Source: Zestosphaera tikiterensis
GTDB taxonomy: Archaea > Thermoproteota > Thermoprotei_A > Sulfolobales > NBVN01
Reading direction: 5' to 3'
DNA length: 32,000 nt
Assembly: GCA_003056265.1 (NCBI GenBank)
Contig: NBVN01000001.1
Location: forward strand, 60,001-92,000
The notes beneath the pieces were generated by a model, which worked only from the letters and a program-made list of their open reading frames with translations, was not told where the DNA came from and did not search any database. Shown piece after piece: positions 691-23,118 of the stretch; the first letter of the stretch is position 1, and each line of letters opens with the position of its first letter. Made by a program: the position numbers and the translations under genes.

Positions 691-849
691 GGTGGGGGTG
701 ATCAAAACATAGATGGGAGGGTCGTGCCGTTGCCCTCGACAGCCGCCCATGAACCTACGGGATGAGGTAAGCGAGCCCTCTAGGTGGAGGCGGAACTCCC
801 TAGATAAGACCATGAAAACACATAAAATGATTGAAATGAACATCTAGGG
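691..849 (+). repeat. GC-rich structured element, copy A of a dispersed five-member family
   Basis: Hand alignment to the reverse complement of 3102-3215 (gatgggag..tc.tg.cgtt...ctcgacag...catg). Colinear motifs shared with 23001-23118: cctacggga, gaactccc.agataa, catctag. The 5-bp hairpin GAGGG-11nt-CCCTC lies at 717-737. Confidence 0.5.
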
Positions 850-920
850 AGAAACGGCACTAATTAATTCAGGAGGGTATTTTAAGCGATTAGGTCTGTA
901 TTACTATCGGGGGTTAGCGT

Positions 921-1157
921 ATGAATGAGAGAGTACGTGAGTTCAGTGTTGTTATACTGGAAGATGAGAGCGGTGGCTATATCGCGGTTGTACCGGAGCT
1001 TCCGGGGTGTCATACACAGGGAGACAGCTTGGATGAAGTGATTAAAAATGTTAGGGAAGCTATAGAGCTTTATCTTGAGAGTCTCTCTGAGGAGGAGAAG
1101 AAGGAGTTATTGAGCCGTAGAGTTGTCGGTCTTCAGAGAGTGAAGGCGGTTGCCTAG
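921..1157 (+). CDS. hicB: HicB-family antitoxin (UPF0150)
   Basis: 78 aa. The run FSVVILEDESGGYIAVVPELPGCHTQGDSLDEVIKNVREAIELYLE is the canonical HicB N-terminal fold signature. It overlaps the downstream hicA by 8 nt. Confidence 0.85.
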   Translation: MNERVREFSVVILEDESGGYIAVVPELPGCHTQGDSLDEVIKNVREAIELYLESLSEEEKKELLSRRVVGLQRVKAVA

Positions 1158-1386
1158 AATAACACCCATAGATCCCTACGAATTCATTAAGTTGCTTAGT
1201 AAGCTAGGATTCAAGCCCATACGGCAACGAGGCTCACACGTGATACTGCTGAACGAACAAGGTGTTAGAATAGTAGTACCTGTACATCCAGGGAAGAAGA
1301 TTAAACCTGGACTCATAAGAATCATATTAACTGAAGCCGGGCTTACTAGGGAAAAATACTTCAAGCTCCTAGAAGAGGACTGCTAA
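1150..1386 (+). CDS. hicA: HicA-family mRNA interferase toxin
   Basis: 78 aa with a TTG start. Shows the YcfA/HicA hallmarks EFIKLLSKLGFKPIRQRGSHVIL...VVPVHPGKKIKPGL. Confidence 0.85.
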   Translation: MPRITPIDPYEFIKLLSKLGFKPIRQRGSHVILLNEQGVRIVVPVHPGKKIKPGLIRIILTEAGLTREKYFKLLEEDC

Positions 1387-1429
1387 ACTTCCTGTCTTCG
1401 TATTTAAAGTTCTTCATGTCTAAATGGTA

Positions 1430-1744
1430 TTATATTATTATTGTAAAACGCAAATAAGGCTTCCCAAAACAGGTAGGCCCTAGACGGTATTCCTTGCCTA
1501 TTATCACGCGTATGAGGATATTAGCGTCGACGAAGACCCTCCTCAAGATATAACTCCTCCGCCGAATCGAGCAACCCCACTCTGCCCTGGGGAGACCCTC
1601 TATGAACTTCCTTACCTTGCGATAATCATCCTCGCCGAATACTCTGCACTTGATAACAATATCTACTTCCTCACCCTCCCCAGCTCCAAAGGCTCTAATG
1701 GCTTGAGAACTCCTTTCGTATCTTACCCTTATGACCCTAGACAA
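1430..1744 (-). pseudogene. Decayed vapBC remnant: DUF104-type antitoxin with two compensating frameshifts, fused to a truncated PIN N-terminus
   Basis: Starts MSRVIRVRYE like the paralogs at 3678 and 8468. The conserved GVLKPLEPLEL block is readable only in a shifted frame, and the frame returns at EGEEVDIVI. The C-terminal part RRVFVDANILIRVIIGKE is a PIN N-terminus that then stops. Confidence 0.6.
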
Positions 1745-2028
1745 TTCTTACCCTCATCCATACACTATATGCATTGAGGACAATTAGTCTTTTTCAGTTT
1801 CCAGATTATCTTGATTGATGTTCTTGACGATAATCACCCATGCAGAGTGTTTCCATTTGATGGTTTCCTCTGGAGACATTGTTTATAAGTCCCGAGTCTT
1901 CGGAGCTGGTGATCCCGGATCCCGAATCTCGGCAGGCTCGCCATATCTCCACAATCCCCAAGTGATAGTATTTACTCATTTAGATTATATGGTATAAAAT
2001 AATGGATATACGTATTAGAGATAATATG

Positions 2029-2748
2029 TTACGTTTTATAAAACGTGTTCCTATCGATATGGAATCCGCATCTAGTTTTAATGTTATGGAAGCCCCTATA
2101 TAGGTAATAAGACCCATATAATTCCCCCAGATTAAATCCTACGTGAGTAATTATGGCTAGCAGAAGAGATCCTGTTTGCTTGCGTAAGTATCCAGCTATT
2201 ATGCTCATAAGGAACGCTATAGCCAAGATGAAGGCTTGTTGGGTTATTGGTGCATTATGGAAAGGCAGCATATGCATAAATGAGAAGAGTGTAGCCGATA
2301 CAATTATTGTGAGCCATGGATTCACATCATGTCTAAGCATATATCCAAGGAAAAGCCCTCTAAATAATGTTTCCTCACCTGTAGGGGCTAGAGCTAGAGC
2401 GATGAGGAAGTACTGGATAGGGTTCTGCTCTATTCCTGGTATAGGGGACTTAAATTGCTCCGAATTAGTTATGTGGAGCTCTGCGTATGCTAGCAAGGAT
2501 GCTATGCAGGTAGCCACCGTGAATACTGCAATCATTCTAGTGAGCCTGACTGCACGTAAACCCAGGATACTATAATCTTCTCGCAAAGGTAGCAAAATAA
2601 AGAGCGTCTGCATAACTGTAGTACCTACTAAAGGCACACCAATAATGGGCACGAGCACTACACAAGTTAGCACACTCAAAGCAAAAACAGCAAATAACAC
2701 CAGGGCACCTTTAATAATGTAGAGGGCTCCATGACATTTCATTCCCAT
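2029..2748 (-). CDS. CPBP-family intramembrane glutamic protease (CAAX protease/Abi family)
   Basis: Multi-TM protein with motifs EETLFRG, FSFMH and HVGFN. The ATG at 2748 (or 2742) lies 30 nt after the upstream PIN stop, whereas the longer ORF start at 2868 would overlap that gene. Confidence 0.8.
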   Translation of the reverse strand: MGMKCHGALYIIKGALVLFAVFALSVLTCVVLVPIIGVPLVGTTVMQTLFILLPLREDYSILGLRAVRLTRMIAVFTVATCIASLLAYAELHITNSEQFKSPIPGIEQNPIQYFLIALALAPTGEETLFRGLFLGYMLRHDVNPWLTIIVSATLFSFMHMLPFHNAPITQQAFILAIAFLMSIIAGYLRKQTGSLLLAIITHVGFNLGELYGSYYLYRGFHNIKTRCGFHIDRNTFYKT

Positions 2749-2777
2749 CTCCCTTACACTAAGCGTGATGATCGGGT

Positions 2778-3479
2778 CTATTCCTTTTGTGAAATAACTT
2801 TGAGCCATGGTACTCGCTTGAAGTCCTCGTCTAGTGTTGCTATAGCGTTTATCCCATGTTGCCTGCATGTTAATGCTATTATTGCGTCTGTAGGCATTAG
2901 ACCGTATCCCTCCATGTACTGGATTATCTCTCCTGGCTCTGCCGTTAGTGGTAATGTCGTAAAGAGCCTCAGTACAGGCCAGACATCGTTTTTGACTAAG
3001 CCTACGAGCCTCTCATCCCTCCCCGCTAGTAACTCCCTTATCCTCCTAGAGCTAAGTCTTGTTGTAAGCGTTTCCCAGACCACGGTATTCCGTGGTTTGG
3101 GTTAGCCCTTGGTGTGGATTCATTAGCTTCGCCCGCACCGCATGGGGCTCTGTCGAGCCTAACGCCATGAGGCTCCCATCTGATGGTGTTACATCGAACA
3201 TCATCCCCCAAACCCTCACATCATAACTGATCATAGGGTAGGAGATCAAAATTTCACACTATATCATCACTCAAGAAATTAAGAGTTATTCAGAATATTT
3301 AAGCCTTACGACATCCCAGAAACAGCCTTAGATAGCCGTATATGACCTCATCAACTACTAGTGGGGTTGATGTATCCAATAATTTCACGATTTTCAACTT
3401 CCTTTAGGAGCTTCTAGGCCCTATCATCTTGGCCGGCGAGGAACGCTAGTATGACGCTAGTGCCCACGAAAACCTTCAT
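2778..3479 (-). pseudogene. vapC: vapC (PIN-domain toxin) pseudogene, hit by several independent lesions
   Basis: The N-terminal fragment 3303-3479 reads MKVFVGTSVILAFLAGQDDRA*. The first catalytic Asp is replaced by Gly, an in-frame TAG sits at 3414-3416, and there is a frameshift near 3355-3362. The C-terminal fragment 2778-3101 (..LMPTDAIIALTCRQHGINAIATLDEDFKRVPWLKV) aligns with the intact paralog 7822-8274. About 210 nt of foreign sequence separates the two fragments. Confidence 0.65.
3092..3302 (-). mobile_element. MITE-like insertion (GC-rich element copy E plus an A/T-rich flank) splitting the vapC gene
   Basis: The two vapC fragments together account for nearly the whole length of the intact paralog. 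The intervening segment is non-coding and homologous to copy A. A 12-bp hairpin, CCCAGACCACGG-TATT-CCGTGGTTTGGG with one G-T pair, lies at 3074-3101 on the junction. Confidence 0.5.
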
Positions 3480-3678
3480 CCTCTATCTCCTCAAGAACCT
3501 CAAGAAGCTCTTCTCTCCTAATGTCGGGCCTGTGCTTTCTTACAATACCATAGAATTTGTCGTCAATTAACTCACTTGACCTTATAATTATCTGAACTTC
3601 CTCGCCCTCCTCAAGGTCAACAGGCTCAAGTGGCTTGAAAACACCTTTCTCATACCTAACCCTGATAACCCTAGACAT
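3457..3678 (-). CDS. vapB: DUF104-type VapB-like antitoxin (apparently intact, partner toxin decayed)
   Basis: MSRVIRVRYEKGVFKPLEPVDLEEGEEVQIIIR. The same N-terminus as the gene at 8271-8468 favours the ATG at 3678 over the upstream TTG at 3693. Its 3' end overlaps the vapC pseudogene start by 23 nt. Confidence 0.8.
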   Translation of the reverse strand: MSRVIRVRYEKGVFKPLEPVDLEEGEEVQIIIRSSELIDDKFYGIVRKHRPDIRREELLEVLEEIEDEGFRGH

Positions 3679-3900
3679 ATGGTTGCCACCCAACTATAAT
3701 GTATGGCTTTAAAAAGATTAAAGCATGTTACAGTAGAATAAACCTACCGATGAGGAACAACTAATCATTTTACTGACCATGTAGCATGGTTTAAGTGGTT
3801 TATAAGCAACTTAGCGATGAAGTTCTCCAGCCTGGAGAGCCGGTGTAGGTATTCACGTGCGGGTTCAACTTCCAACGGGTCCGCTATTATTTGTTAAGTC

Positions 3901-4410
3901 CTACTTTAGCTTTCTTAGGGCCTCGTTTATTATCTTATCAGACACTCTGAATCCGTATTCTTTTAACCCTCTTAGCGCTTGGACTGGTTTGCCTTTATCT
4001 ATGAGGCCTTTATCATAAGCCAGTCGTAGAAGACCTACTGTCCCTTTGTTTTTAACTCCATGGATTTTGCTTTAAGTCTTGCAATTCTATCGTCTAGGAT
4101 AACTGTACACTTATACTCAACAGCTAATGTTATTGCCTCCGACTCGCCCATGCCTAAAGGGTCGTGAAGGGCCTCTACTAGTGCCCTATCCCGTGGCGTC
4201 AAAACTTTTACCTTGCCTTGGCGTACAAGGTCTCCCAGCTCCTTTGAGCCAGGCTTGTTATGACCCTCTGCGACAACTTCCTCGTAAACTGCGTGAGGTA
4301 TAATTATCTCCCATACCAAGCGCTTCTATAATGTCTGTCATATTTACCTGTGCAAGTGCTATTATGGCGCTGGAATCTAATACTAGGCAGTGGTTCACCT
4401 TATTACTCAA
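3901..4410 (-). pseudogene. DUF3368/COG2405-type PIN toxin pseudogene (two frameshifts)
   Basis: Three consecutive frames together encode one PIN protein. They read LVLDSSAIIALAQVNMTDIIEALG (about 4322-4410), VWEIIIPHAVYEEV...ESEAITLAVEYKCTVILDD (4035-4319) and GTVGLLRLAYDKGLIDKGKPVQALRGLKEYGFRVSDKIINEALRKLK (3901-4040). The second shift falls in an A-rich run near 4046-4056. Confidence 0.65.
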
Positions 4411-4417
4411 TCCCTAG

Positions 4418-4660
4418 CTACTCTCGGAGCTCTTTAGCACTATAAGGATAGGCTGGTATCCCTCTCCTATGAAGCTCTACTAGGAAGTCATATAGGCTCA
4501 TCCCAGCCAGCTCAGCTGCACGCTCAACACTAACAACGCCCCTAAGGAATAAGTCAATCGCATAAGCTAGTCTAACATCCTTCTCGACATCCCCAACATA
4601 ATGAGAAGGTACCTTAACCTTAACCACCACTTCACGAGGCAACCTATCCCTCACTACCAT
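4418..4660 (-). CDS. UPF0175 (COG2886)-type antitoxin, cognate of DUF3368 PIN toxins
   Basis: 80 aa. The segment AIDLFLRGVVSVERAAELAGMSLYDFLVELHRRGIP is the typical UPF0175 HTH region. It lies immediately upstream of the PIN pseudogene. Confidence 0.7.
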   Translation of the reverse strand: MVVRDRLPREVVVKVKVPSHYVGDVEKDVRLAYAIDLFLRGVVSVERAAELAGMSLYDFLVELHRRGIPAYPYSAKELRE

Positions 4661-4765
4661 TAATATATGGTAACTCTTAAGTCCTTATAACCTCGTAGCC
4701 GGAGATAGCATATCCCATACATTACCCCTTAAGATATGAATAGATTAGAAATTGCCGTTCGTCGG

Positions 4766-5548
4766 TTATGGCTTGCATATCTGCCTGGCTAGCTCTATTT
4801 CTCGCAGCCTCTCCTCCGTTATCGGTTGTTGCGCCTTCTCGATGCACTCTCCTGTAGCTAGTAGCTGTGGTGAGATGCAATATCCTTTTTCTCTGTCATC
4901 CCATTCTACCAGTATCATGTAGCACGGAGTTTCAATTTCAACCTTGTTTGGAGGCTCTGAGTTGACGATCAAGTAGTGATGCTCACCTATGTAGAGAAGT
5001 GCGGCTTCGACCACTTTCTCTAAGCTAGCGGTACAGCATAATAGACGCCGAACCCGGATAGGTGAGAAAGGAGGCCTTAGATAGTTAGTATAGAATTCCC
5101 TAGGGTCTAACACCCTTACCCAGCGCTCCATCAGCTGCCAGATATCGAAGTCCCGCTTGTTCCAGGTAACTAGTATAGCTTGCTTAAACCCCTCCTCGTA
5201 ACGCAGGTGAAGCGCGCTCGCAACATACACAGCGTCGTCGGGATCTTTAACAAACCCCTGTGCCTCTGAGAGATATCTTGCAACCTTCTCGTTGGGAAGG
5301 GGTTTCACACGCTTTAATATAGCTTTAAGAGCTAGGCGTATCTCATACTCGCTTCTACCAGCCTTCCGCGCTATTTCCTCTGTGTGCTTTAGGATCTCAC
5401 TACTTAGGGCTACAGGGTAGAAGAAGGAGTAGATGATCGGAGCTAGGGAGACTATGTAGCGGTTGAGTCCCTGCTCCCGGATGAGTGCCGCTATAACCAC
5501 GTTGGCGTCAAGGACTACTGCTGCATAGCGCCTTTCAGCCTTGCCCAT
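4766..5548 (-). CDS. PIN-domain protein with an extra C-terminal extension of about 95 aa
   Basis: PIN acidic residues lie in VVLDANVVIAAL, DPDDAVYVASAL and VTWNKRDFD. Residues from about 165 to 260 (four Cys, EHHYLIVNSEPP..) match nothing I recognise. Confidence 0.75.
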   Translation of the reverse strand: MGKAERRYAAVVLDANVVIAALIREQGLNRYIVSLAPIIYSFFYPVALSSEILKHTEEIARKAGRSEYEIRLALKAILKRVKPLPNEKVARYLSEAQGFVKDPDDAVYVASALHLRYEEGFKQAILVTWNKRDFDIWQLMERWVRVLDPREFYTNYLRPPFSPIRVRRLLCCTASLEKVVEAALLYIGEHHYLIVNSEPPNKVEIETPCYMILVEWDDREKGYCISPQLLATGECIEKAQQPITEERLREIELARQICKP

Positions 5549-5751
5549 GCCTTCCTTGTCGCCTCATCGGCTATTTTGAGGGCGTCTTCCATTTCCAGCT
5601 TTGACTCCATAGACACGGCTTCTAACAGTAGTAGCGTCTCAGCAGCCTTTGCCAGCTCCTCAGCACTCACGCCCCGGGCCCTAGCGAGTTCTACAACCTC
5701 TCTAGGAAGAGGCACTTTGACAAACATTATCTTCTCACTCTCTTCACTCAT
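5515..5751 (-). CDS. Putative cognate antitoxin of the long PIN protein
   Basis: Small acidic helical protein MSEESEKIMFVKVPLPREVVELARARGVSAEELAKAAE. Its 3' end overlaps the PIN gene start. The ATG at 5751 is preferred over the GTG at 5763. Confidence 0.55.
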   Translation of the reverse strand: MSEESEKIMFVKVPLPREVVELARARGVSAEELAKAAETLLLLEAVSMESKLEMEDALKIADEATRKAWARLKGAMQQ

Positions 5752-5864
5752 CCCATACCCCACTATAACCTATAGTCCCAACACAATTAAAAACCTATCA
5801 AAGAAGACCATAGGTAGTTTCTCAATCAACTCTTCCCATAAGGTAAGGGCTACTCCCAGAGAAG

Positions 5865-6017
5865 TTGGGCCCACCGATCCGTGTTTCAAGGGAGATTGCT
5901 CGGTAGCTCGGGGTATCCCACACCACGGTACACAGGAGGCTCAAGCACATCAAGCAAGCACTTGAGGAAATAAACCCTGGCATCCCAGAAACACTAGTCA
6001 AGGAAGAAGAGGTGTAG
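5865..6017 (+). pseudogene. Fragment of a helix-turn-helix protein with an in-frame TAG
   Basis: The frame reads ..REIAR*LGVSHTTVHRRLKHIKQALEEINPGIPETLVKEEEV, an HTH recognition-helix pattern. The stop is at 5904-5906 and there is no convincing start. Confidence 0.3.
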
Positions 6018-6082
6018 CTAGAAGTGTAGAGCATCTTAGGGATATTAACCGGGGCACAGTAGAAGTATTATAGGGATGCTCT

Positions 6083-7423
6083 ATGTGTAGCTCACTACTG
6101 TCAATACCAGCACTAATACTGATATCTCTGCAACTACTAGTGCTACTCGCAACAATAGTAAATGCGGGGTCTATTGGGGTATCCGTGAAGTGGGTTAAAT
6201 ATATAAACCCAACAGACGGGGACGGCCAAGCTTTTGGGACATGCGTATTCGGTGACTACGTAGCTGCCTTAGGATCGACTGGGGGTAAACCATATGTAGC
6301 CCTGCTAAGTAAAAGCGATGGCAGCGTAGTGAGGGAATGGAAGTCGACCGATAGCTGGGCGGGATGGTTTATTAACTGTGTTTCGATCAATGGGAAGCTC
6401 TACGTTATTGGCAACCCAGGTATCTACGTATTCGATGCTGACCTCAATATTCTAGCAAATATTAAAGTCGTGGATTTATCAGACTATTTCTCGCTGGCAC
6501 ATGATGGGAAGGCACTATATGTAGGTGGTTGGGTTGGTGAAGACGTGAACGGAGACGGTGAAAAAGAGGCAGTTTGGCTTGTTGAGAAGAGGGATCCACG
6601 TGACCTCAGCCTCATATCCTCGAAGAAGATATACGTTGGCTCATGGAAGGGGGGGACGATATATGACATAGATGTGGAGCCCTTTACCGGCAGAATATGG
6701 ACTGTAGGGGGTTACGCAGATTCCAAGGATACGGAGCACTCGTTGATAGCGGTTCTCGACAGCGATCTTGAAGTCCTCAAAGTGATTGACTACCCTGATG
6801 GCAGTGAGGGATATGTGGGTGGGTTTAATGGCGTAGCTTTTGACGGTAAAGGATACGTCTACGCCTCAGGCATCCTTGGTATCGCTAAATTTAGCTTGGA
6901 TGGAGAGCTGGTAGCCGTAAATAGGGACGTTGAGAGAGCACCTAAGATTGTGTATGGCTACGACCACCTACATGCCTTCAGAGTTGAATATATTAAAGCC
7001 TGCTTGAGGCACGTACTATACATCTATGATACCAATTTAAGCCTAGTTAAGAAATACGTGTTAAGTGAGAGCATAGACGCGGACTCATACTTCAATGTTC
7101 ATGGTAGGCCAACGCTAGAGGAGAGCAACATATATGTAGTAAGCTTCGACAAAGCCCTAGGTGAAGGTAACCTGAGGTTTGTTGTGTACTTTCTACAAAT
7201 AGAGAGTACTCCAGCATCGGAGACTATGTCTACGGTAGCTACTACGTCGCCGACTGTAACGACTGCTGCAACCACGGGATTAATGCCTCAAGAAACATCT
7301 ACAGTAGCGACTACATCGGCTACTCAGGTATTGCCGGGTATACAACTAGGTGTGGCCCTAGCAGTAATAGGAGTCATAGCTGCAATAGCAACTGTTGCAG
7401 TATTCGTGCCCAGGAAGCGGTAG
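6083..7423 (+). CDS. Secreted, C-terminally anchored surface protein (beta-propeller-like repeats, Thr-rich stalk)
   Basis: N-terminal signal-like hydrophobic segment and repeated G..Y..G beta-strand motifs. A T/S-rich stalk (STVATTSPTVTTAATT..STVATTSAT) is followed by a terminal TM helix and PRKR. Confidence 0.75.
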   Translation: MCSSLLSIPALILISLQLLVLLATIVNAGSIGVSVKWVKYINPTDGDGQAFGTCVFGDYVAALGSTGGKPYVALLSKSDGSVVREWKSTDSWAGWFINCVSINGKLYVIGNPGIYVFDADLNILANIKVVDLSDYFSLAHDGKALYVGGWVGEDVNGDGEKEAVWLVEKRDPRDLSLISSKKIYVGSWKGGTIYDIDVEPFTGRIWTVGGYADSKDTEHSLIAVLDSDLEVLKVIDYPDGSEGYVGGFNGVAFDGKGYVYASGILGIAKFSLDGELVAVNRDVERAPKIVYGYDHLHAFRVEYIKACLRHVLYIYDTNLSLVKKYVLSESIDADSYFNVHGRPTLEESNIYVVSFDKALGEGNLRFVVYFLQIESTPASETMSTVATTSPTVTTAATTGLMPQETSTVATTSATQVLPGIQLGVALAVIGVIAAIATVAVFVPRKR

Positions 7424-7677
7424 GCATCTTTGCATCCCTAAAACCAATATTTTTATAGTGCTGAATCCCTCCCTGTGAAACCATGGTAACTCCTGACTCC
7501 TCATGCCCCCTACCCTAAAATCCCTCTGATTCGCTGTCTAAGCTAAGGGTTAGAACAGGGCTCTCGAGACAAATGACACTATAGTATTAATGCTATCAGC
7601 GGAACCTCTATACGAACTCTTAACTTTACTCGGATTAAGTATCTCTTTGAATGATTAACCTTAACACCACTATACGA

Positions 7678-7703
7678 GTTTAAATCCTGGCGGGTCCGCC
7701 ACT
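7678..7703 (+). repeat. 26-nt partial copy of the tRNA-like 3' end at 301-326 (att-like direct repeat)
   Basis: gttTaaatcctggcgggTccgccact versus gttCaaatcctggcgggCccgccact, 24 of 26 identical. Weaker similarity continues about 20 nt downstream. Confidence 0.55.
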
Positions 7704-7821
7704 TAAATCCCACTATATGAATGTTCCCCCTTTCTCCAGTAAGGCCGTGACTTATAGTTCTGATGAGAACTAGGTTGATTCCAGCTTCATCATTGATTAT
7801 CTCAGCAGATATATTGACGGT

Positions 7822-8274
7822 CTAGGGCGCAACTCTTAGCCAAGGAATCCTCTTGAAGTCCTCGTCGAAAGTCAGAATTGTGTTTATGCCGTAGTGCTTA
7901 CATGTTAAAGCTATTTGTGCATCATTAGGAAGTAGCTTAAAATTTTGAATTATTTGAAGATATTCATCGTAGTCAAAGTAATCATTTATTATCTTAGTAT
8001 TCAAATCTTTTAGGAAAGAATCTATTGCGTCTATTACTTCCCTAGGATACCCCTGTTTTGAAATTAATCTACTTAAACCATACCCTCCCTTAACTATGCC
8101 CTTCTGTCTATAATACTCATACGTTGCAACATATAGGGCTTCATTAATTGCGATCCCCGAAATCGTAAAATGTGAGTCGCTATACGCTTCTAAGATTTGC
8201 TCAGCTAAGTCACTCTTCTCAGTTTTGAGTAAAATGCTGAGTATGAAGCTAGTATCAATGTAAGCTAGCCTCAT
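7822..8274 (-). CDS. vapC: PIN-domain toxin VapC (intact)
   Basis: 150 aa. The four PIN acidic positions lie in YIDTSFIL, INEALY, NDAQIALT and TFDEDF. It overlaps the upstream antitoxin by 4 nt. Confidence 0.85.
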   Translation of the reverse strand: MRLAYIDTSFILSILLKTEKSDLAEQILEAYSDSHFTISGIAINEALYVATYEYYRQKGIVKGGYGLSRLISKQGYPREVIDAIDSFLKDLNTKIINDYFDYDEYLQIIQNFKLLPNDAQIALTCKHYGINTILTFDEDFKRIPWLRVAP

Positions 8275-8468
8275 TGAATATGAGCCTCTTCCTCGATCTC
8301 TAGTAACTCCTTAATCGATGACCTTCCTAAAATCCCTCGATACTTCTTGAGTACTTTCCTTATATCACGTCTAATAGCGATTAGGACCTCCTCTCCCTCC
8401 TCTAGATCTACTGGTTCTAGAGGTTTGAGAGCACCATTTTCATAACGTACACGTATGACCTTAGACAC
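8271..8468 (-). CDS. vapB: DUF104-type VapB-like antitoxin
   Basis: MSKVIRVRYENGALKPLEPVDLEEGEEVLIAIR, a paralog of the gene at 3457-3678. Confidence 0.85.
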   Translation of the reverse strand: MSKVIRVRYENGALKPLEPVDLEEGEEVLIAIRRDIRKVLKKYRGILGRSSIKELLEIEEEAHIQ

Positions 8469-8610
8469 CTAACTACACCCAAGTATTATATATAATTTTG
8501 AGATTAAAACACGTTGTAATAGAGTAAGTTTACCATTATAGAATTTCTTATCATACCTCCTAAAATGTTGCTGACTTTACTTGACTTCATGTAACAGAGT
8601 GATATGGGTT

Positions 8611-8660
8611 CCAGCCTCTGGAGCCGGAGGTCCCGGGTTCAAACCCCGGCGGGCTCACCA
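8611..8660 (+). tRNA. Second tRNA-like 3' segment (anticodon-loop CTG, perfect T arm, encoded CCA) with no contiguous 5' half
   Basis: T arm CCGGG-TTCAAAC-CCCGG, acceptor 3' strand CGGGCTC, discriminator A, then CCA. The anticodon stem CCAGC/GCCGG has one A-C mismatch and the loop is CTCTGGA. The 5' strand GAGCCCG is absent upstream. It is a paralog of 275-324, 38 of 50 positions identical by my count. Confidence 0.5.
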
Positions 8661-11419: not shown

Positions 11420-11590
11420 GACGCCTCGCAAAGCTCTGGCCCCCTTCCCGCCCTGAAGGGCGAGGGTTCCCCTTCCTAAGCGGTTCATTGGTTTGGAGGT
11501 ACATCTTTCTTCATTCACCTCCGGGCCGGGCCTCCGGCCCATTACCCCTATCCCCGAGAGGGGACTCGGGGTTATGGAATTTCTAATCAA
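11420..11590 (-). ncRNA. GC-rich highly structured element, copy B of the dispersed family (ncRNA or MITE relic)
   Basis: Three adjacent perfect hairpins: GGAGGT/ACCTCC at 11495-11522, GGGCCGG-GCCT-CCGGCCC at 11523-11540 and CCCCGAG-AGGGGA-CTCGGGG at 11552-11571. It shares the motifs ccaatgaacc and cgcccttcaggg with copies A and C. The flanks are A/T-rich. Confidence 0.45.
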
Positions 11591-11729
11591 TCATCGGCTC
11601 CTAAAACCTCAAAACTTCATGTGGAAAGCGTAGTATGGGTTGTTTATATGCTTTATTAGTTGATATTGTTTAATGTTTACTTCTCACACCAAACAACATC
11701 ACAAAATAAAGCAATTACTTATAAACCCT

Positions 11730-12479
11730 TCATCCCGCCTTAAAAGACAGGCTTTCGGTTATAAAAAAGTTTTGGAAATGGTTAACGCTCCCGCTATTTT
11801 TAATCTTTTTCACATTAGGTACAGCCATCACTACTCCTCCAATGAGCATTAGGGCTATGCCTGCATATAGCATGTTACTGTTATTAAACATTCCAGTGTT
11901 GATGTCGACGTTAAGTTTGTAGGATATTTTCCCTTCATCCGTATCATATCTGATGTTCTCCGCTTTGGCGGGTAGGTTTACGGTCAGAGTCTCCATGATT
12001 TTATAGTCTTCTCCCGCACCGTAAACGTGTGTGAAGACAAGCGTATTCCCGTACTGAGTAGTGAGAGTCAGTTTTTCACCAGGCTTTGCTATTGCAAGCT
12101 CCCACAAACCGTTGCCCTTATATACTGCGGCTCCCAGCAAGGTATACGTTGCTGTTAGCTTGTTATTAGCTTCATCAAGGCTTATGCTGAGATTTTCTAT
12201 TTGTTCAGGGGCAGCTCTCGGTCTTAGCTCTCTCACGAAAGTCGATATTGGATTATAGACTCGCTTGAACGCTATATACGCTTGAGCGCTGAACTTTATC
12301 TCCTCCCTCACATACGCTATACCGTTGTCTAACACATTTAGGGTTGTCACACCCTCTATCTCGAATACTGTGGGAGGCTGCACTTGCGCGTGGGAGACGA
12401 CACTAACAATAGCTATAAATAGCAATATCATAGGTAATGCGATTCCTAAAACTTTCTTATGCCCGAGCATATCGTTCAC
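11730..12479 (-). CDS. Secreted protein with a signal anchor and a C-terminal TM helix, co-operonic with the transglutaminase-like gene
   Basis: The N-terminal hydrophobic segment ends ..VSHAQV and a C-terminal TM (LYAGIALMLIGGVVMAV) follows. The start lies 3-12 nt after the upstream stop and is preceded by GGGGTG. Confidence 0.7.
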   Translation of the reverse strand: MNDMLGHKKVLGIALPMILLFIAIVSVVSHAQVQPPTVFEIEGVTTLNVLDNGIAYVREEIKFSAQAYIAFKRVYNPISTFVRELRPRAAPEQIENLSISLDEANNKLTATYTLLGAAVYKGNGLWELAIAKPGEKLTLTTQYGNTLVFTHVYGAGEDYKIMETLTVNLPAKAENIRYDTDEGKISYKLNVDINTGMFNNSNMLYAGIALMLIGGVVMAVPNVKKIKNSGSVNHFQNFFITESLSFKAG

Positions 12480-12482
12480 CCC

Positions 12483-14219
12483 TCAACCCCCTATTTGAAA
12501 TGTTTGAACGATTTGATCCACAGCAACTATCGTGTCCTGGTTAGCGACTGCTTGGTCAATGATATAGAATACTGCTAAACCATACCCCCGCACGTTCGTG
12601 TAGCGCGCTATTGCCATGTCTCCCGTGCCAAGTTTATATACAACGGTCTCTGCTGGAATATTTCCTAGGGCGCCGTTGGGGTTATCGGTTGTCACCTGAT
12701 ATCCCTTGTAGTATTCGTTGAAGACTGACTCTATGCTAGACTTTATATCGTTCCCGCTGAGGCTTCGACTCCATATTATTACTACTAGGATCATACCGTC
12801 TGGACTGGACAAGTCTACTTCGTAAGCATTTTCGTAAGCATAGTTCTCGGCTTCCCAATCCGCGGGCACAGTAATGGACCAGGGTAGATCGCCATAGGGA
12901 TTCACAATCTTTTTCGTGTTGGTTGGTGGCTGTGGTTGTGGTGGTTGAGGTTGTGGAGGTTGCGGCTGAGGCGGTTGAGGTTGCGGTGGCTGTGGCTGTG
13001 GTGGCTGTGGTTGTGGCGGTTGCGGCTGTGGTTGTGGAATCCCTCCTCCCCCTTGTCCTCCCCCTGCTTGTCCTCCCGCACCAGGCATAACACCAGGCAT
13101 AACGTATCCCCACTGTTCTAGAACGTTAGGCGGTAGTTCCGGCAGTTCCGGCGGTACTATTCCGGATGTTTGCGCTTTAACAACATCTAATATGAGGTGT
13201 GGGCCTTGGAGAGCTTCTTGAACTACTCTGGCACCTGTTTCAACAGCCTGCTGGAAACTAACCTTACCTCCTAGAGTGGTGCTCTCGATTGGCAGGAGTT
13301 GCCCGCTTGGGAGCACTATTATGGGTATCGCATGTCCCGGCATGAGAACTATGTAAGCTTTTAAGTTTTGACTCATCGCCACAGCAGCGAGGAATATTGA
13401 GGTGTCTATGCATGTACCGCTCCTATCCCGGATCACGTCTCTAGGGTATTTAACCCATTGAGATGCTTTACCTGACCAGAATGCTTCGGATTCTGTTTGG
13501 TATGTAATCCCGTTATATACGCTGAAGATCCACACCGCTTCGAGGAATGTGAGCGCTTCCTGATCGTTCAATGCCGCACCAGCACCCATACCTGTTAGCT
13601 TATTCGCCATAGCCGCATATCTTTCTACCACCGGGTCTTTCGGTGTGACCCACGCGGCTAATAGTTTATAGTTGCTGAATATATCTTGAAAGCTCCCAGT
13701 GTTCTCTTCCGGCGGTAGACCCGAGAATATGAAGTCGCGGCTTCCAAGAATGTTTATAGGCTTTGTTTTTGTTTCGGTAACTGGCTCACCGTCTGATTTC
13801 GTCTTGTACTCTATTTTCACGTAGAGCTTTCCTGGTGTGGCGGTCTGAAGGTTTGGCGCTTGTAAGAGTACGGGATAGTACAGATCTACTATCGCTCCAC
13901 CTGGAGGGATTAGCTTGTATTCCTTTGGTTCACTCCAGTCTGTTAGACCCTCGATTTTATAAGTTATTTTAACGTTATATAATGGGCCTGTTCCACTATT
14001 TTTAATGACTGTTTTAGCCACCCAATACCCTAGGCTTGGATTTCCATAAACTTTGTAAACCGCTGTCATGAAACTATCTATACTATATACTTTAACCTCT
14101 AAACGTCCTTCTCCTTCTCCTCCTCTAGCTATGTTCGGCAATGCCGCTAGAACTATTCCTAATACGAGAATCGCTACTCCTATAATTGTAAACATTTTAG
14201 CATTCTTCTCTATAGGCAA
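12483..14219 (-). CDS. Membrane-anchored transglutaminase-like cysteine protease-fold protein with a PQ-repeat linker
   Basis: N-terminal TM helix. The core GTCIDTSIFLAAVAMS...LMPGHAIPIIVL matches the Cys...His arrangement of transglutaminase-like domains. A Gly-rich stretch, a PQPQP repeat tract and a C-terminal beta-rich domain follow. Confidence 0.8.
   Translation of the reverse strand: MPIEKNAKMFTIIGVAILVLGIVLAALPNIARGGEGEGRLEVKVYSIDSFMTAVYKVYGNPSLGYWVAKTVIKNSGTGPLYNVKITYKIEGLTDWSEPKEYKLIPPGGAIVDLYYPVLLQAPNLQTATPGKLYVKIEYKTKSDGEPVTETKTKPINILGSRDFIFSGLPPEENTGSFQDIFSNYKLLAAWVTPKDPVVERYAAMANKLTGMGAGAALNDQEALTFLEAVWIFSVYNGITYQTESEAFWSGKASQWVKYPRDVIRDRSGTCIDTSIFLAAVAMSQNLKAYIVLMPGHAIPIIVLPSGQLLPIESTTLGGKVSFQQAVETGARVVQEALQGPHLILDVVKAQTSGIVPPELPELPPNVLEQWGYVMPGVMPGAGGQAGGGQGGGGIPQPQPQPPQPQPPQPQPPQPQPPQPQPPQPQPPQPQPPTNTKKIVNPYGDLPWSITVPADWEAENYAYENAYEVDLSSPDGMILVVIIWSRSLSGNDIKSSIESVFNEYYKGYQVTTDNPNGALGNIPAETVVYKLGTGDMAIARYTNVRGYGLAVFYIIDQAVANQDTIVAVDQIVQTFQIGG
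12923..13037 (-). repeat. In-frame tandem 15-nt repeat encoding about eight PQPQP units
   Basis: The plus strand reads as iterated ggYtgNggYtgNggN units. The copies differ mainly at synonymous positions. Confidence 0.9.
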
Positions 14220-14272
14220 ATTCTGTTCACCTAGCTACAAGAGCTATTGTTAGGGAAAATATTTAAAGTTTT

Positions 14273-17403: not shown

Positions 17404-17515
17404 CCTTCACATTCGCTTAAGGGAGTCTGACGGAGCAATGCGGGAGTCTAAGGCAGTGAAGCCAGGCTCCCGAAGGGCGGGTGTGGAGGAAACAATGAGG
17501 AATGAAGACCCAACA
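17404..17515 (-). repeat. GC-rich structured element, copy C of the dispersed family
   Basis: Its reverse complement aligns colinearly with 23001-23118: gggtc..att..cctcc..cccttcgggagcc ... agactccc ... cattgctccgtcagactccc. The internal direct repeat gggagtct occurs twice. Confidence 0.5.
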
Positions 17516-17521
17516 TAAAGG

Positions 17522-17926: not shown

Positions 17927-18018
17927 CTACACCGAAAATATGTGGTTAAGAGTTGTTATTAACTTATGCGGAGTTAAGGCATACCTCTTAAATTAGAGAA
18001 AAGATATTTACCTACCCC

Positions 18019-18219: not shown

Positions 18220-18228
18220 ACCTACCCC

Positions 18229-18558: not shown

Positions 18559-18592
18559 ATACTACCAAACCCTTCATGTGAATCACCAATCA

Positions 18593-18610
18593 CGTGAATA
18601 AATATTCACG
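18593..18610. promoter_or_regulatory. Palindrome CGTGAATA-AA-TATTCACG overlapping the A/T-rich promoter region of the Fe-S gene pair
   Basis: The 8-bp arms are exact and lie 35-52 nt upstream of the GTG at 18558. An extra GTGAAT half-site sits at about 18578. Confidence 0.4.
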
Positions 18611-18974
18611 CAAATAAAAGCTTTACAGTAATTAAACACTTTAATTAAACTATAACAACATAAACAATCCTACAACATGCTCATCATAGAATAAACGCAT
18701 TGAATGCTGATATACTTCGGAATACTCACGTCCCACTATAGCTGATAACTCCGACTTATGTTTAAGCTCTTAAAGCAACGTTAGTAACTTACTTACTAAC
18801 TAACGACGGTAATTCGTTCTTAACTGGCTGAAAAGAGATGCCCCTCCTTAAGGGGGTTATCTCCATTTATCATCGTTCCTTAAAGGTCTTCAACTGTAAA
18901 ACTTAAGTAAACATAACGTTGTGGATAACCTTTAGAAGGGAAAGTATTAATTTAGATAATGAACGAGTATTTAA

Positions 18975-20192
18975 TTACTTACCTAAAGCACGAGCGTAGA
19001 AACTCCAAGCGTTCGGATCTCCTTTATCCAGTCTCCAAACGGCTATCCCCTTAAGCTCATATTTCACGGCTATAAACGCTCTATAGTAGCCCATCTCGCC
19101 GTCTACGAAGTACGCAACTTCGTTGTTTAGCTCTAGAACTTTCTCCATTAATTCCTTATCTATCGTGTAGTTCTTACCGCTTTTTTCAATAAGTGCGAGC
19201 CAATCTGGATAAAGTAGCCAACCCCTAAATGTTCCATCTACGGACCATGTCTTCCCGTAATTGGGGATTCCTAAGATCAGCTTTTCAGGTGGTATGTATT
19301 GTAGCGCATATCTTACGCAGTCTTCAACCCACCAAATCGGGGCTACGGGCTTAGGCCCGCTTACCCATTCATAGAAATCGTACGCCATGATGATAACTGC
19401 GTCGACTTCCGTCTTCCCTAACTTGGCGTAATCGTAAGTTGCTGTATAGCTGGAGGGCCACTCCATCCTTTTAGCTGGTACGTCCACCGTAAGTATGAGT
19501 CCATTACTATGGAGTTTCTTAGCAAGCCTATCTATAAATGACGCGAATTCTGTTGAGTATTCAGGTATTGAGACTTCGAAGTCTATGTTGTAGCCGTAGT
19601 AGTTATATTTCTTAGCGAGGTATACCAGCTCAGCAGATAACGAATCTATCGCGTTGGGGTCCGTAACGAGTTTCCTCACCAACTCGCTATTTGCTGAGAC
19701 CAGCATAGGCATAAGCTTAACTCCTAAACTGTTTAGGAACTCTATAAACTCCCTATCCTCCGCACATCTTTTATCGTACTTACCCACACTTAAATCCTCT
19801 GTAAGGTAGTACCAGTCGGGAGACACTATATCTATTTGCCTTGAGAACCTTTCTAAAACACTCCATTCACTCTTATCGCATGTGCTAAGCATCCAAGCAA
19901 TCACGAGTTGATTCCCTTGCGGTATTATCACTTTTCTCTCAGTTATAGTTGATGTTGAAGTGGTAGTAGATGTGAAGGTAATGAACTCAGTCCTTGACAC
20001 AGTCTTAACCACCGTAATAGTTACTGTAGTTGGTAAGGTAAAAGTCTTAATATCTGTTTTAATGCTTGTAATAAGTTTCGTAACCTCAACTGTATGTGTA
20101 GGAAAGCTCGAGCCTAACCCATAACCTAAGGCAATGCCCAACAAAAGAAGTGTTGCTAAGCCAATTACGTAACCTAACTTCATATCAATCAC
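18975..20192 (-). CDS. Membrane-anchored GH18-like (chitinase-fold) protein
   Basis: N-terminal TM helix and a Thr-rich stalk. YGYNIDFE matches the D-x-E end of the GH18 DxxDxDxE motif, with the upstream Asp residues replaced. The ATG at 20183 is an alternative start. Confidence 0.7.
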   Translation of the reverse strand: MIDMKLGYVIGLATLLLLGIALGYGLGSSFPTHTVEVTKLITSIKTDIKTFTLPTTVTITVVKTVSRTEFITFTSTTTSTSTITERKVIIPQGNQLVIAWMLSTCDKSEWSVLERFSRQIDIVSPDWYYLTEDLSVGKYDKRCAEDREFIEFLNSLGVKLMPMLVSANSELVRKLVTDPNAIDSLSAELVYLAKKYNYYGYNIDFEVSIPEYSTEFASFIDRLAKKLHSNGLILTVDVPAKRMEWPSSYTATYDYAKLGKTEVDAVIIMAYDFYEWVSGPKPVAPIWWVEDCVRYALQYIPPEKLILGIPNYGKTWSVDGTFRGWLLYPDWLALIEKSGKNYTIDKELMEKVLELNNEVAYFVDGEMGYYRAFIAVKYELKGIAVWRLDKGDPNAWSFYARALGK

Positions 20193-20318
20193 AACATAAA
20201 TATTTACTACTAACTACTTATTAATTAAAAATTAGTGTGTTACGTACTGAACTTTAGGTGGGGTTATTAACGTGAGGAACTATGTTGTAGACCGCGGCGT
20301 TTTAATTTTTAAGTTTCG

Positions 20319-22307
20319 TTAGTCTTTCTCTTCAATGCCTTGAAGGTGTTTCAGGAACCAACGCGTTATGTGCTTCAGTCTTTCAACTCTATGTTTTGGT
20401 TTTCCGCTTCTGCTGAGTTCGTGGTTCTCTCCTGGGAATAGTACGAGGCGTGTTTCAACTCCTTTAAGCTTTAGAGCTGTGAAGAACTCTATTGCTTGGT
20501 CTAGCCAGCAACGGTAGTCTTCCATACTGTGGATTATCAAGGTCGGGGTTTTCGCGTTCTCCACGTGCATTATCGGGCTCTTCTCGAGGTATGCCTGCGG
20601 GTTCTTCCAAGGTGGTTGACCGCATCCTATCATTTCAGAGTTGAAGTAGAAGCCTATATCCGTAGTTCCGAATTTACTTATCCAGTCACTTATGGATCTT
20701 TGGGTTACCGCAGCCGCGAATCTATCTGTATGTGTGACTATCCAGTTGACCATGAACCCTCCGTAACTGCCTCCAGCAACGCCAACACGTTTCGGATCGA
20801 GTTTACCTCTATACTTAGTTAGTACGTAATCAACAGCTTCCATTAAATCTTGATAGTCTCTCTCCCCGAAGTGACATCTTATATCAGCGAATTCCTCGCT
20901 ATAGCCGTCACTACCTCTGGGGTTGGTATACACTACTGCGAATCCTTTATGTGCGAGTAGGTGGAATTCGAAGAAGAAGCCGTCTCCATACATGGTTTTA
21001 GGGCCGCCGTGTATATAGAGTATCCAAGGCAGTTCCTCACTCTTCACAGCTTCTTTAGGGGGCCAAAGCACCCAACCATCTATTTCAACGCCGTCGCTTG
21101 CTTTAAACGTGAAGTGCTTAGGCTTCGTTAAGTTGAAGGACTTAACGAAGAATTCGTTGAAGTTGGTTAACTTGGTTAAGCTACTAGCTTTAAACGCGTA
21201 GAGTTCGGCAGGCTCGATGGGGCTCATGGATGTGAAGACTGCGAGGTCTTCACTTGAAGAAACGTCAAACTCGTCCACGCTTCTTCCGTCGAGTTCAACA
21301 TACTTCTCCAGCCCTCCATCTAAAGACGCACGGTAGAGTGTGACTTTACCGGCGTCGGGTACTAAGAAGTATATATGGCCGTCCTGAAGCCCGCCTCTAG
21401 AGACCCACTTAAGCGTTGGTGAGCAGCTTTTCCACCTAGCGTCACTCCCTAAAGTGTTTAACACGTTTCTATCTAGTCCTTTGGTTAAAGACTTAAACTC
21501 TCCGGAGTTGAGGTCATATACGTATACCCTATTATGCGAGGCGAAACCTCTTTCCCCGCTAACGTTCCTGCCTATAAAGGCTATCTTACTACCGTCAGGA
21601 CTCCACGTAAGCGCCGATACTGAATAACCCTTTATAGGGAGTTCAACACGTTCTCCCGACCCTACGTCAAGTATGAACACCCTAGATTCGTAAGGCTTTA
21701 ATTCATCGACGGATGCTGCGTAGGCAAGCTTTCTGCTGTCAGGACTCCAAGCTAGGGTGGTGACGTTGTAGTCGCCGTTAGTTAATTGTTGTGTGATGCC
21801 GCTTGACGTATCTACGATGAAAATATGTTTTCTGAGGTTGTAGGTGAATCCCTCGCCGTTATTCCATATCGGTATTCTGTCTATTACCTTCACGTCTTCA
21901 TGAACCTCACCCACCTTGGATATTACGGCGATTTTCTTAGAGTCTGGAGACCATCTATACTCTGCTATACCGCCTTTAAAGTAGGCAAGTTTCCATGGCT
22001 CTTTAGACTCAAGAGACGCTATGTATATGTTCGCCCCTTTCTCGCCTTCTAATAAACCACGCCGCGATATAAACGCTAGCTTCCTACCGTCAGGACACCA
22101 CTGCGGGCAGGTGTCTTCAGGCCCGCTAGTGAAGGGATATACCTCACCACTTCCTACGTTTGCTATCCATACAGCTGATTCATATAAGTTCTTCTCAAGG
22201 TTTATCTTGGCCGTGAGGAACGCAACCATCTCTAAAGACGGGTGGAGGACGGGACTTGACACTAGAACAAGCTTTGAAAGATCTTCGTAGTTTAGGAGGC
22301 TAACCAA
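20319..22307 (-). CDS. S9-family serine peptidase (acylaminoacyl-peptidase / prolyl oligopeptidase type)
   Basis: The N-terminal beta-propeller carries repeated WSPDG/WSPDS motifs. The nucleophile elbow is GVAGGSYGG, followed by a downstream Asp (SMEDYRC) and His (GENHELS). Confidence 0.9.
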   Translation of the reverse strand: MVSLLNYEDLSKLVLVSSPVLHPSLEMVAFLTAKINLEKNLYESAVWIANVGSGEVYPFTSGPEDTCPQWCPDGRKLAFISRRGLLEGEKGANIYIASLESKEPWKLAYFKGGIAEYRWSPDSKKIAVISKVGEVHEDVKVIDRIPIWNNGEGFTYNLRKHIFIVDTSSGITQQLTNGDYNVTTLAWSPDSRKLAYAASVDELKPYESRVFILDVGSGERVELPIKGYSVSALTWSPDGSKIAFIGRNVSGERGFASHNRVYVYDLNSGEFKSLTKGLDRNVLNTLGSDARWKSCSPTLKWVSRGGLQDGHIYFLVPDAGKVTLYRASLDGGLEKYVELDGRSVDEFDVSSSEDLAVFTSMSPIEPAELYAFKASSLTKLTNFNEFFVKSFNLTKPKHFTFKASDGVEIDGWVLWPPKEAVKSEELPWILYIHGGPKTMYGDGFFFEFHLLAHKGFAVVYTNPRGSDGYSEEFADIRCHFGERDYQDLMEAVDYVLTKYRGKLDPKRVGVAGGSYGGFMVNWIVTHTDRFAAAVTQRSISDWISKFGTTDIGFYFNSEMIGCGQPPWKNPQAYLEKSPIMHVENAKTPTLIIHSMEDYRCWLDQAIEFFTALKLKGVETRLVLFPGENHELSRSGKPKHRVERLKHITRWFLKHLQGIEEKD

Positions 22308-22468
22308 GACATAGACACCATTAAATAACTACGTCTAAGTTTTAAAACTAATTTCTCCATATAATATTATTAAGAAATTCTCGATTACTTCAGGCTTCTT
22401 TAAACCCTGCTGATGTTTCAGGTAAGTCCGCTTTTATATGGAAATACATTGAAAGCTTGGTGTGTTAA

Positions 22469-22957
22469 ATGGTTGCTGAATTGCTAGCTATTCTAGCAGC
22501 TTTATTCTTTGGCTTAAACCTAGCGACCTCTAGGAGAGGTCTCCTCCACGCTTACGCATATACCGGTGTGTTTCTAAGTTTAGTTATTGGCTGCCCTATG
22601 TACTTACTTACCTCCTTACTTGTCGGTGAGTTTAAGGACTTCACATTCGACGTTTATGGGTTGATCGCAGTTTCCTTAGCTGGACTGCTGCACTTCAGCT
22701 TGGGTAGATATCTCCTATATAGAAGCGTTCAGTTAGTAGGCGCTAACGTTTCAGGAACTATAACCGCTTCCAGCGCGTTATACTCAACTATTTTGGGGGT
22801 CCTATTACTTAAGGAGGAGTTATCAGCTCTTGCCGCTGTTGGAGTTTCATTAATTATAGTTGGAGTTACTATGGTATCGCTTAGGGGTTTGTCGGCGTTT
22901 AAATCGCTTAAAGGGGTTTCCTACGCGTTACTTACTAGCGTCATATTCTCGGTGACC
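22469..22957 (+). pseudogene. EamA/DMT-family transporter gene, 5' fragment (interrupted by the mobile element)
   Basis: First five-TM EamA repeat. After ..SYALLTSVIFSVT the reading frame runs into element sequence and stops at 22985-22987. Confidence 0.75.
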
Positions 22958-23000
22958 GCTCACCTCAACCGTGCCCTCATATATTAAACTGTGTTAGGCA

Positions 23001-23118
23001 CGGCTGGGGTCATTACGGCTATTATCCTCCCGACCACCCTACGGGAGCCGAACTCCCCTCAGATAATCGGGGTTCATCTAGATTCATCAGCCTCACTCAT
23101 TCATTGGCTTCAGACTCC
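23001..23118 (+). repeat. GC-rich structured element, copy D, forming the left-end region of the TnpB element
   Basis: Colinear similarity to the reverse complement of 17404-17515 and to 750-849. It lies between the insertion junction and the RHH gene. Confidence 0.5.

Follow-up and report, generated by a model that had tools for sequence, protein, structure and literature searches.

A stretch of 32,000 nucleotides from the archaeon Zestosphaera tikiterensis (contig NBVN01000001.1, positions 60,001 to 92,000; here called the window) holds five short GC-rich islands, named A, E, B, C and D in their order along the sequence, which a first-pass annotation had read as diverged copies of a single structured element, one of them forming the left end of a TnpB-encoding insertion sequence (IS). 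Here we describe these islands, three of which appear to specify TnpB guide RNAs (omega RNAs, where omega stands for obligate mobile element-guided activity) on small elements that have no tnpB of their own. The units are wider than the islands first drawn: A occupies 590–857 (+ strand), E 3066–3322 (− strand) and B ~11421–11765 (− strand), and D lies within an IS left end that begins at ~22954. Sequence comparison places A and E in one RNA family with two subtypes and B in another omega RNA class; D is unrelated to either, and C is unsupported.

Five GC-rich islands compared

The G+C content of the window is 43.4% (100-nt windows: mean 0.434, s.d. 0.062). All five islands are local maxima over 100 nt (A 0.62, E 0.60, B 0.63, C 0.59 and D 0.57), as the first-pass annotation had it; its picture of GC-rich islands in A/T-rich sequence holds only in that part, as maxima occur elsewhere too (12784–13394, 0.67, and 5803–6018, 0.60, both coding) and the window is not notably A/T-rich. 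The open reading frames (ORFs) called across A, E and B disagree in frame, in agreement with the earlier observation that those over the islands share no consistent frame.

Among the islands, only A and E pair in a window-wide self-BLAST (711–751 against 3181–3141, 41 nt, 76% identity, E = 0.036), a search that also lists paralogous toxin–antitoxin and tRNA-like repeats. Their local alignment lies far above shuffled sequence (z = 9.2; 0 of 300 shuffles as good), and this pair, already proposed at first pass, is further borne out by the covariance-model matches to both islands described below. The second pair that had been called robust, C with D, falls to chance level. It is missing from the window self-BLAST at E < 10, and C is not recovered, even at E < 100, by a profile built from D and its homologue at a comparison locus, L003. 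The C–D local score of 15 (z = 5.2 against shuffles) is what chance yields in a 32-kb window, because unrelated coding tiles score 17 and 15 when D is slid across all 141-nt tiles of the window.

Short motifs said to run colinearly through all five islands each occur in only two or three of them. By window motif count, CCCTNCGGGAG is confined to C and D, CNATGAAYC is found in islands A and B and at two unrelated window sites, and of the 10 window sites of RRACTCCC, 6 fall beyond the islands; none of the three counts departs much from shuffle expectation. We therefore give next to no credence to one dispersed five-copy family derived from the left end of the window's TnpB element. Such a family could claim the weak C–D match, an A–D local score of 12 and the GC maximum in every island; against it stand the coding tiles that equal the C–D score, the lack of a motif common to all five, covariance models that match A and E only, a D and L003 profile that finds no other island, and the assignment of B to a different, Rfam-related class.

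A structured RNA family in A and E

A search pattern describing the core common to A and E (21 specified bases, with ~0.3 chance hits expected) recovered 50 further loci, 16 of them in genomes of Desulfurococcales and Sulfolobales and 34 in metagenomes, and no copy in viral contigs. The core hairpin stems differ by a double compensatory swap (GAGGG/CCCUC versus GAGCC/GGCUC) around a conserved 11-nt loop. The copies can be aligned across ~200 nt and fall into two subtypes: type 1, represented in the window by A, with a scaffold 3′ end of ...CUAGGGACAAACGG, and type 2, represented by E, which ends in ...GGGGAAACGC. RNAalifold predicts 36 pairs in type 1, of which 20 are compensatory, and 25 pairs in type 2, of which 10 are compensatory. 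Conservation stops exactly at AAACGG among 31 type-1 copies and at AAACGC in type 2, and the 3′ flanks past the scaffold are not conserved between copies.

We built a covariance model of type 1 that excludes E (R1) and ran it unfiltered over the whole window. R1 matches A along the whole model with 179.8 bits, and gives E 47 bits (E = 1e-12), with no other window match better than E ~1. With a type-2 model built without E (R2), the scores are 129.8 bits for E and 71.8 bits for A, and type-1 copies elsewhere are also cross-hit. Islands B, C and D are unmatched by either model in the window. It follows that the two subtypes are homologous and that B, C and D are not members. The covariance analysis thus bears out for A and E the structured nature that the first-pass annotation had supposed, and dissolves its single five-member family.

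Rfam at gathering thresholds and a tRNA search over the window gave no match, and a permissive Rfam search for a known family behind A and E returned only a chance microRNA hit over the two; this omega RNA family has no Rfam model. Other identities were considered and set aside. A protein-coding origin fails because A and E would read their shared core in frames that do not agree, and where they differ the changes are GG/CC hairpin swaps that compensate each other. A cis-regulatory leader is excluded by the downstream genes, which differ at every locus and often lie on the opposite strand. A likeness to RNase P, signal recognition particle or H/ACA RNAs (GGAAGUCC, ACA) has no Rfam support, and its motifs belong to a simple 3′ hairpin.

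Type-1 copies also have a kink-turn-like motif (alignment columns ~101–160; 747–790 in A), made up of a C-stem CCGCC, a 3-nt bulge CAU, GA, a variable hairpin and (C/U)GA-GG(C/U)GG; some copies, A included, have a second motif, GGGAUGA...CGAGCCC, inside the same region. The motif suggests possible L7Ae binding, a property that to our knowledge has not been ascribed to TnpB guide RNAs.

Overlap with the 3′ end of tnpB

At six comparison loci (L005, L028, L037, L043, L045 and L047), the RNA starts ~10 codons past the RuvC-III motif of a long upstream ORF, a motif that reads ...WHRDxVACWNLL... or RDVVNAINIG; decayed tnpB stubs stand beside the RNA in the same arrangement at L011 and L023. The upstream ORF matches PF07282 (Cas12f1-like TNB, formerly OrfB_Zn_ribbon) at 43.7 bits against a cut-off of 26.3 and has more than 1,000 homologues, some of them annotated as 'RNA-guided endonuclease InsQ/TnpB'. 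As an independent test set we took TnpB loci picked by protein identity only, from Vulcanisaeta souniana, Ignisphaera cupida and two metagenome contigs (L052, L054, L055 and L056). All four have an R1 match (175–199 bits), which covers the last ~190 nt of the called tnpB and ends ~10 nt beyond it. The gene upstream of tnpB encodes an HTH_17 plus Resolvase protein, the serine-recombinase TnpA of IS607-type elements, in three of the four, and likewise at L047 and L037. This overlap with the tnpB 3′ end in full-length elements, the arrangement by which omega RNAs are defined, points to the A/E family RNA being the TnpB omega RNA, also termed right-end element RNA (reRNA).

At the same four loci and in other tnpB ORFs, gene callers run on across the omega RNA and so give TnpB a length of 432 aa (...GDGSNAPS...DGSLVPLGSTATHDP...). 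Small ORFs called over A (544–765) and E (3038–3211) yield this spurious peptide too.

The family thus resembles the omega RNAs of ISDra2, of IS607-type TnpBs and of Sulfolobus islandicus SisTnpB1 in three respects: the RNA of full-length relatives overlaps the tnpB 3′ end, a structured scaffold reaches to the right end of the transposon, with a variable flank beyond it as guide, and the partner protein has a Cas12f1-like TNB domain and RuvC motifs. It differs from them in that most copies were found detached from tnpB, with a left-end TATA box, and in having no Rfam counterpart.

Solo copies and element A

Copies elsewhere do not always adjoin tnpB-like genes, a point that the first-pass annotation had proposed to check: about three-quarters of type-1 copies, counted without redundancy, lack an upstream tnpB and have in its place a TATA-like box (often GTTTATAAGCTC) whose spacing to the start of the RNA is constant. 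In one solo copy (L051), the 48 nt before the RNA share 95.8% identity with the left end of a full-length element (L047; GGGGCWGAAACGTTTAAAT...GTATCGGAG), and after this shared left end tnpA follows in L047 and the omega RNA follows directly in L051. The match suggests that solo copies are internal-deletion derivatives, in which a left end with its promoter is joined to the omega RNA and right end. They are not relics of IS left ends, one of the origins first offered for them, but a right-end/omega RNA module joined to a very short left end. A second proposal, that the islands are structured-RNA copies on derivatives resembling palindrome-associated transposable elements (PATEs) or miniature inverted-repeat transposable elements (MITEs), holds for A, E and B and fails for C and D. 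Each of the solo variants has a close relative among the tnpB-linked variants, which implies repeated recent origin.

In Ignisphaera cupida, a solo type-1 omega RNA (L054, 1871–2070, − strand; 197 bits) lies ~1 kb upstream of a full-length tnpB that has its own omega RNA, in opposite orientation; solo and tnpB-linked copies therefore coexist in one genome.

Element A (268 bp, 590–857, + strand) is delimited by its R1 and R2 matches and by its left end. It starts with GGGCTG at 590, has a TATA-like TTTATAAA at 623–630 and continues into a complete type-1 omega RNA scaffold (~647/657–857) that ends in ...CUAGGGAGAAACGG; no tnpB lies upstream. Its score of 180 bits is as high as those of tnpB-linked copies. 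The left-end start (GG/GCTG...TTGATG...TATA) is common to nine other solo copies (L008, L010, L031, L033, L041, L002, L006, L009 and L013), which places the left boundary of A at ~590. The flanking DNA past the scaffold, at 858–877, is predicted to be the guide segment, and a T-run follows at ~882–885. Type-1 ends open with GG and close with GG, which would fit the proposal that IS607 transposition involves a GG overlap dinucleotide (PMC4058570).

Copies with promoters of their own might also have been taken over by the host as small RNAs (sRNAs) with a TnpB-independent cellular role, for example as regulatory or L7Ae-bound structural sRNAs. Type 1 does keep its kink-turn-like motif (CCGCC-CAU-GA...CGA-GGCGG), HgcC RNAs are stand-alone genes, and overexpression of a PATE-derived RNA improved growth in Halobacterium (PMC4615843). 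Two copies (L010 and L015) both sit beside a coaBC-like gene, a synteny too weak to claim: they are different 3′-hairpin variants with different upstream neighbours. Together with 3′ flanks, or 'guides', that differ between copies and the tnpB-linked relative of every solo variant, this makes such exaptation highly improbable in our judgement.

Element E within a vapC gene

Element E (254–257 bp, 3066–3322, − strand), a second tnpB-less mini-element, is defined by its R2 and R1 matches and by intact VapC orthologues. On the − strand it comprises a left end with a TATA-like CTTAAATATT (3294–3303) and a type-2 omega RNA scaffold (3233–3066) that ends in ...CUGGGAAACGC; the predicted guide lies in the flanking DNA at 3065–3046. 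It lies within a vapC (PIN) pseudogene (2778–3478, − strand), recognized from frame translations, tblastn and orthologues, which it splits at Leu53/Thr54; a vapB-like partner occupies 3457–3693.

Three VapC orthologues (P0001–P0003; 84–86% identity, 144 aa) are uninterrupted at this point (...YGYLRL/TTRLSS...). Between the vapC codons that are adjacent in the orthologues lie exactly 257 nt (3066–3322), with a GC(T) repeat at both junctions that leaves an ambiguity of 2–3 nt. The insert opens with the left end and its TATA box and closes 0–2 nt past the scaffold AAACGC; with it removed, the vapC sequence restored at E's own empty site reads AAGGCTTACAACAAGAC. So clean an insert between adjacent codons is direct evidence that a gene-less unit transposed. 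The possibility that E is instead a decayed piece of vapC was rejected, as the intact orthologues reveal an insertion. Since then the split gene has gained a stop codon and a frameshift, and its first catalytic motif has changed from Asp to Gly.

Element B

Element B (~345 bp, ~11421–11765, − strand) is a PATE-like mini-element recognized by its Rfam matches, its fold and the likeness of its left end. In its direction of reading it has a degenerate left-end hairpin with a TATA box (11718–11765), and an omega RNA scaffold of the sot0042/HgcC class (~11423–11590) ending in a right-end hairpin, CGCCCUUCAGGGCG, with a UUCA tetraloop; the predicted guide lies in the flank (~11420–11401). B matches the whole Rfam sot0042 model at 41.6 bits (E = 1.8e-9), short of the gathering score of 88, and HgcC at 25.7 bits, short of the gathering score of 50. 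By sequence it is best described as a distant relative of sot0042/HgcC, and is not a member by Rfam's criterion. The fold is more stable than that of shuffled sequence (z = −3.4), with only four sequences in the alignment.

Homologues of B with the same Rfam matches were found by nhmmer at L031, L022 and L049. The copy at L049 covers the 3′ end of a tnpB (...VNEAHTSSKCPIHG...FNADLVGAYNIL...) that stands next to a Y1/HUH tnpA, the arrangement of a canonical IS200/IS605 element. No tnpB lies upstream of B, and the left end of B aligns to that of L031 with a score of 24, against 8.6 ± 1.3 in shuffles. The left-end hairpin and TATA box in place of tnpB suggest that B, like a PATE, is a fusion of left end and right end, here with a different omega RNA class.

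Related contigs also contain the end hairpin of B type (ACAACYGAAAGCCUCGCCCUUCAGGGCGGGGAGGAGGUCAGA) alone, at L031 2310–2355, L045 1166–1237 and L049 1293–1334. We interpret these isolated hairpins as solo IS200/IS605 ends without a scaffold.

In Halobacterium, IS1341-type tnpB genes have sotRNAs ('sense overlapping transcripts', of which sot0042 is one) as their omega RNAs, and the HgcC family has the same right-end UUCA-tetraloop hairpin as sot0042 (PMC4615843, PMC12558985). Like these families (RF02656 for sot0042, RF00062 for HgcC), B and its relatives span the whole sot0042 model and end in that hairpin. They differ in scoring 39–49 bits against the gathering score of 88 for sot0042, and 26–36 against 50 for HgcC, and the host of B belongs to the crenarchaea and neither to the haloarchaea nor to the Thermococcales.

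Origin and possible mode of action

We consider it probable that A, E and B are gene-less, non-autonomous derivatives of TnpB-carrying insertion sequences, each joining a left-end promoter to an omega RNA module. The homology of the three RNAs to RNAs that cover the tnpB 3′ end in full-length elements, their conserved structure with compensatory changes, the fusion of left end to omega RNA and the one precise insertion, that of E, argue for this origin. The parents of A and E would be IS607-type elements with a serine-recombinase tnpA and tnpB, and that of B an IS200/IS605-type element with a Y1 tnpA and tnpB; these candidate parents come from other genomes, and the tie first drawn between the islands and the window's own TnpB-like element does not extend to A, E or B.

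Internal deletion would have removed the protein genes, bringing a short left end with its TATA promoter up to the omega RNA right-end module. The promoter would then drive transcription of the scaffold plus ~20 nt of flanking DNA, the guide. TnpB made elsewhere in the genome could bind the mini-element RNA in trans and cut the vacated insertion site, homologous recombination restoring the mini-element, and cognate TnpA from full-length elements elsewhere would mobilize it in trans. That TnpB, guided by RNA, cleaves the donor site once vacated, and that recombination then restores the element, has been described (PMC10055086, PMC8612924), as have PATEs encoding omega RNAs that are acted on in trans (PMC10055086).

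Several observations weigh against this account. The 32-kb window holds no cognate tnpB or tnpA for A, E or B, and their predicted guides have no second window target at ≤3 mismatches beyond chance. No conserved transposon-associated motif (TAM) could be read from the left flanks, and no full-length parent with the left-end subtype of A is among the fetched loci. The 5′ hairpin of E (GAUCCGCACUGCGGUGA in relatives) is degraded, and E scores below all other type-2 copies with R2; E may be decaying.

The missing partner tnpB and the state of E, along with the decayed tnpB stubs beside the RNA at L011 and L023, would equally suit dead relics: inert leftovers of degraded insertion sequences whose RNA is no longer expressed or used and whose TATA boxes are incidental. 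We think this unlikely, given that the solo type-1 copies, for all their prevalence, have kept the full scaffold with compensatory changes, that A scores like tnpB-linked copies, and that solo copies, unlike random truncations, join left end to RNA exactly and have the TATA box at a constant spacing.

Beyond the derivation of A, E and B from TnpB-carrying insertion sequences, three different omega RNA classes lie within 12 kb of a toxin–antitoxin-rich island, without a nearby cognate tnpB. That promoter-equipped, tnpB-less omega RNA genes are more than passengers and form a stand-alone guide pool for a trans-acting TnpB or a nuclease-dead relative in hyperthermophilic archaea, some having been exapted for silencing or policing loci, is an idea that we hold as quite doubtful.

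The TnpB-like insertion sequence and other features of the window

Island D falls in the left end (22954–23180, + strand) of an SSO2105_N-type TnpB-like IS. Conservation of this left end with that of the homologue at L003 upholds the first-pass placement of D in the left-end region of the window's TnpB-like element. It contains a TATA-like CATATATTAAAC (~22976–22987), a conserved hairpin, GGGAGCCGAACUCCC (23042–23056), and a second TATA-like TTTATAAG (~23139–23146), all on the + strand; the two left ends agree from their first bases, ACCG(C/T)TCACCTCA, and have the TATA box and a GGGAGCC...CUCCC hairpin in common. A 51-aa ORF (23181–23336, + strand) lies ahead of the TnpB-like gene (23300–24331, + strand), whose 343-aa product has PF27229 SSO2105_N (precomputed Pfam), RuvC-like motifs and no zinc finger, and is 34% identical to the 371-aa protein of L003. 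The stretches compared for this IS, 22954–24455 of the window and L003 6180–7481, have a conserved structured left end and no structured 3′ flank, and in the window the IS splits an EamA transporter gene (22469–22987 and 24504–24740). D is thus a conserved stretch, left end and 5′ leader, of an SSO2105-type TnpB-like IS that sits in an EamA gene and is unrelated to A, E and B.

An omega RNA at the 3′ end of this TnpB-like gene was also sought, R1 and R2 included, and the A/T-rich 3′ flank gave no omega RNA-like match. None of A, E and B has the 343-aa protein as its partner. The left-end hairpins of D and L003 both match Rfam Sso133 (RF02814, Sulfolobus sRNA133) on the strand opposite to the gene, at ~28 bits against a gathering score of 44, and this match bears no relation to A, E or B. 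A palindromic TTATAA box stands just upstream of the Sso133 match in both IS copies. An outward-reading RNA from the IS left end, scaffold first and then flanking DNA, is conceivable.

Island C (17404–17515, − strand) is a GC-rich intergenic stretch downstream of an ArsR-family gene, with no demonstrable feature. It has no relative in Rfam or by the R1 and R2 models, none by nhmmer outside its own genome, and no fold beyond shuffled sequence (z = −0.09). Its reading as a degenerate D-type left end was ruled out by the D and L003 profile and the tile scores, and we treat C as ordinary intergenic sequence.

Two of the three omega RNA mini-elements lie in a run of toxin–antitoxin genes at 900–8470. 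This run includes hicB/hicA (921–1386) and at least three pairs of VapB-like (MSRVIRVRYE...) and PIN genes, one intact (8468–7822) and others decayed (1430–1744 and 3693–2778), with further PIN_2 and PIN-like genes at 4035–5763. Two paralogous stretches of ~140 nt at 183–324 and 8520–8660, 74.6% identical, end in tRNA-like 3′ portions with an anticodon arm, a T arm and an acceptor (...GGTTCAAATCC...GCCCGCCA) and have no matching upstream 5′ acceptor strand; 31 nt of this 3′ end recur as a fragment at 7678–7708. Neither ARAGORN nor Rfam calls a tRNA at these stretches, which may represent the 3′ halves of split tRNA genes, or else att-type remnants on either side of the toxin–antitoxin-rich segment. 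The highest GC of the window, at 12784–13394, coincides with a tandem PQPQPP (Pro/Gln) repeat in the gene for a 578-aa secreted or membrane protein (12483–14219, − strand), which explains the internal direct repeats in the window self-BLAST.

Relation to known systems and significance

Descriptions already exist of omega RNAs, of TnpB systems in archaea and of PATEs encoding omega RNAs. A close likeness is to PATEs and MITE-like derivatives of IS200/IS605 and IS607 elements, such as Halobacterium VNG_R0052 and the PATEs of Geobacillus stearothermophilus (PMC10055086, PMC4615843). These too are gene-less, measure ~250–350 bp and fuse a left end to a right end, with an omega RNA that would need TnpB in trans; A and E differ in coming from IS607-type (serine recombinase) elements and in having no left-end hairpin. 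New here are a two-subtype RNA family absent from Rfam, the prevalence of promoter-equipped solo copies among the Thermoprotei copies fetched, and the clean insertion into vapC.

For the window, these results replace a five-copy repeat with three putative TnpB guide-RNA genes on gene-less mini-transposons and one unrelated IS end. For archaeal annotation, they give a means of recognizing RNAs that are now called as spurious ORFs or as over-extended 432-aa TnpB genes, and the family may be of use in mining thermostable TnpB/guide pairs. Element E offers a clean natural case of a guide-only element inactivating a toxin gene. More broadly, the omega RNA family that it represents is abundant in Thermoprotei, where most copies in the fetched sample are solo and have a promoter of their own.

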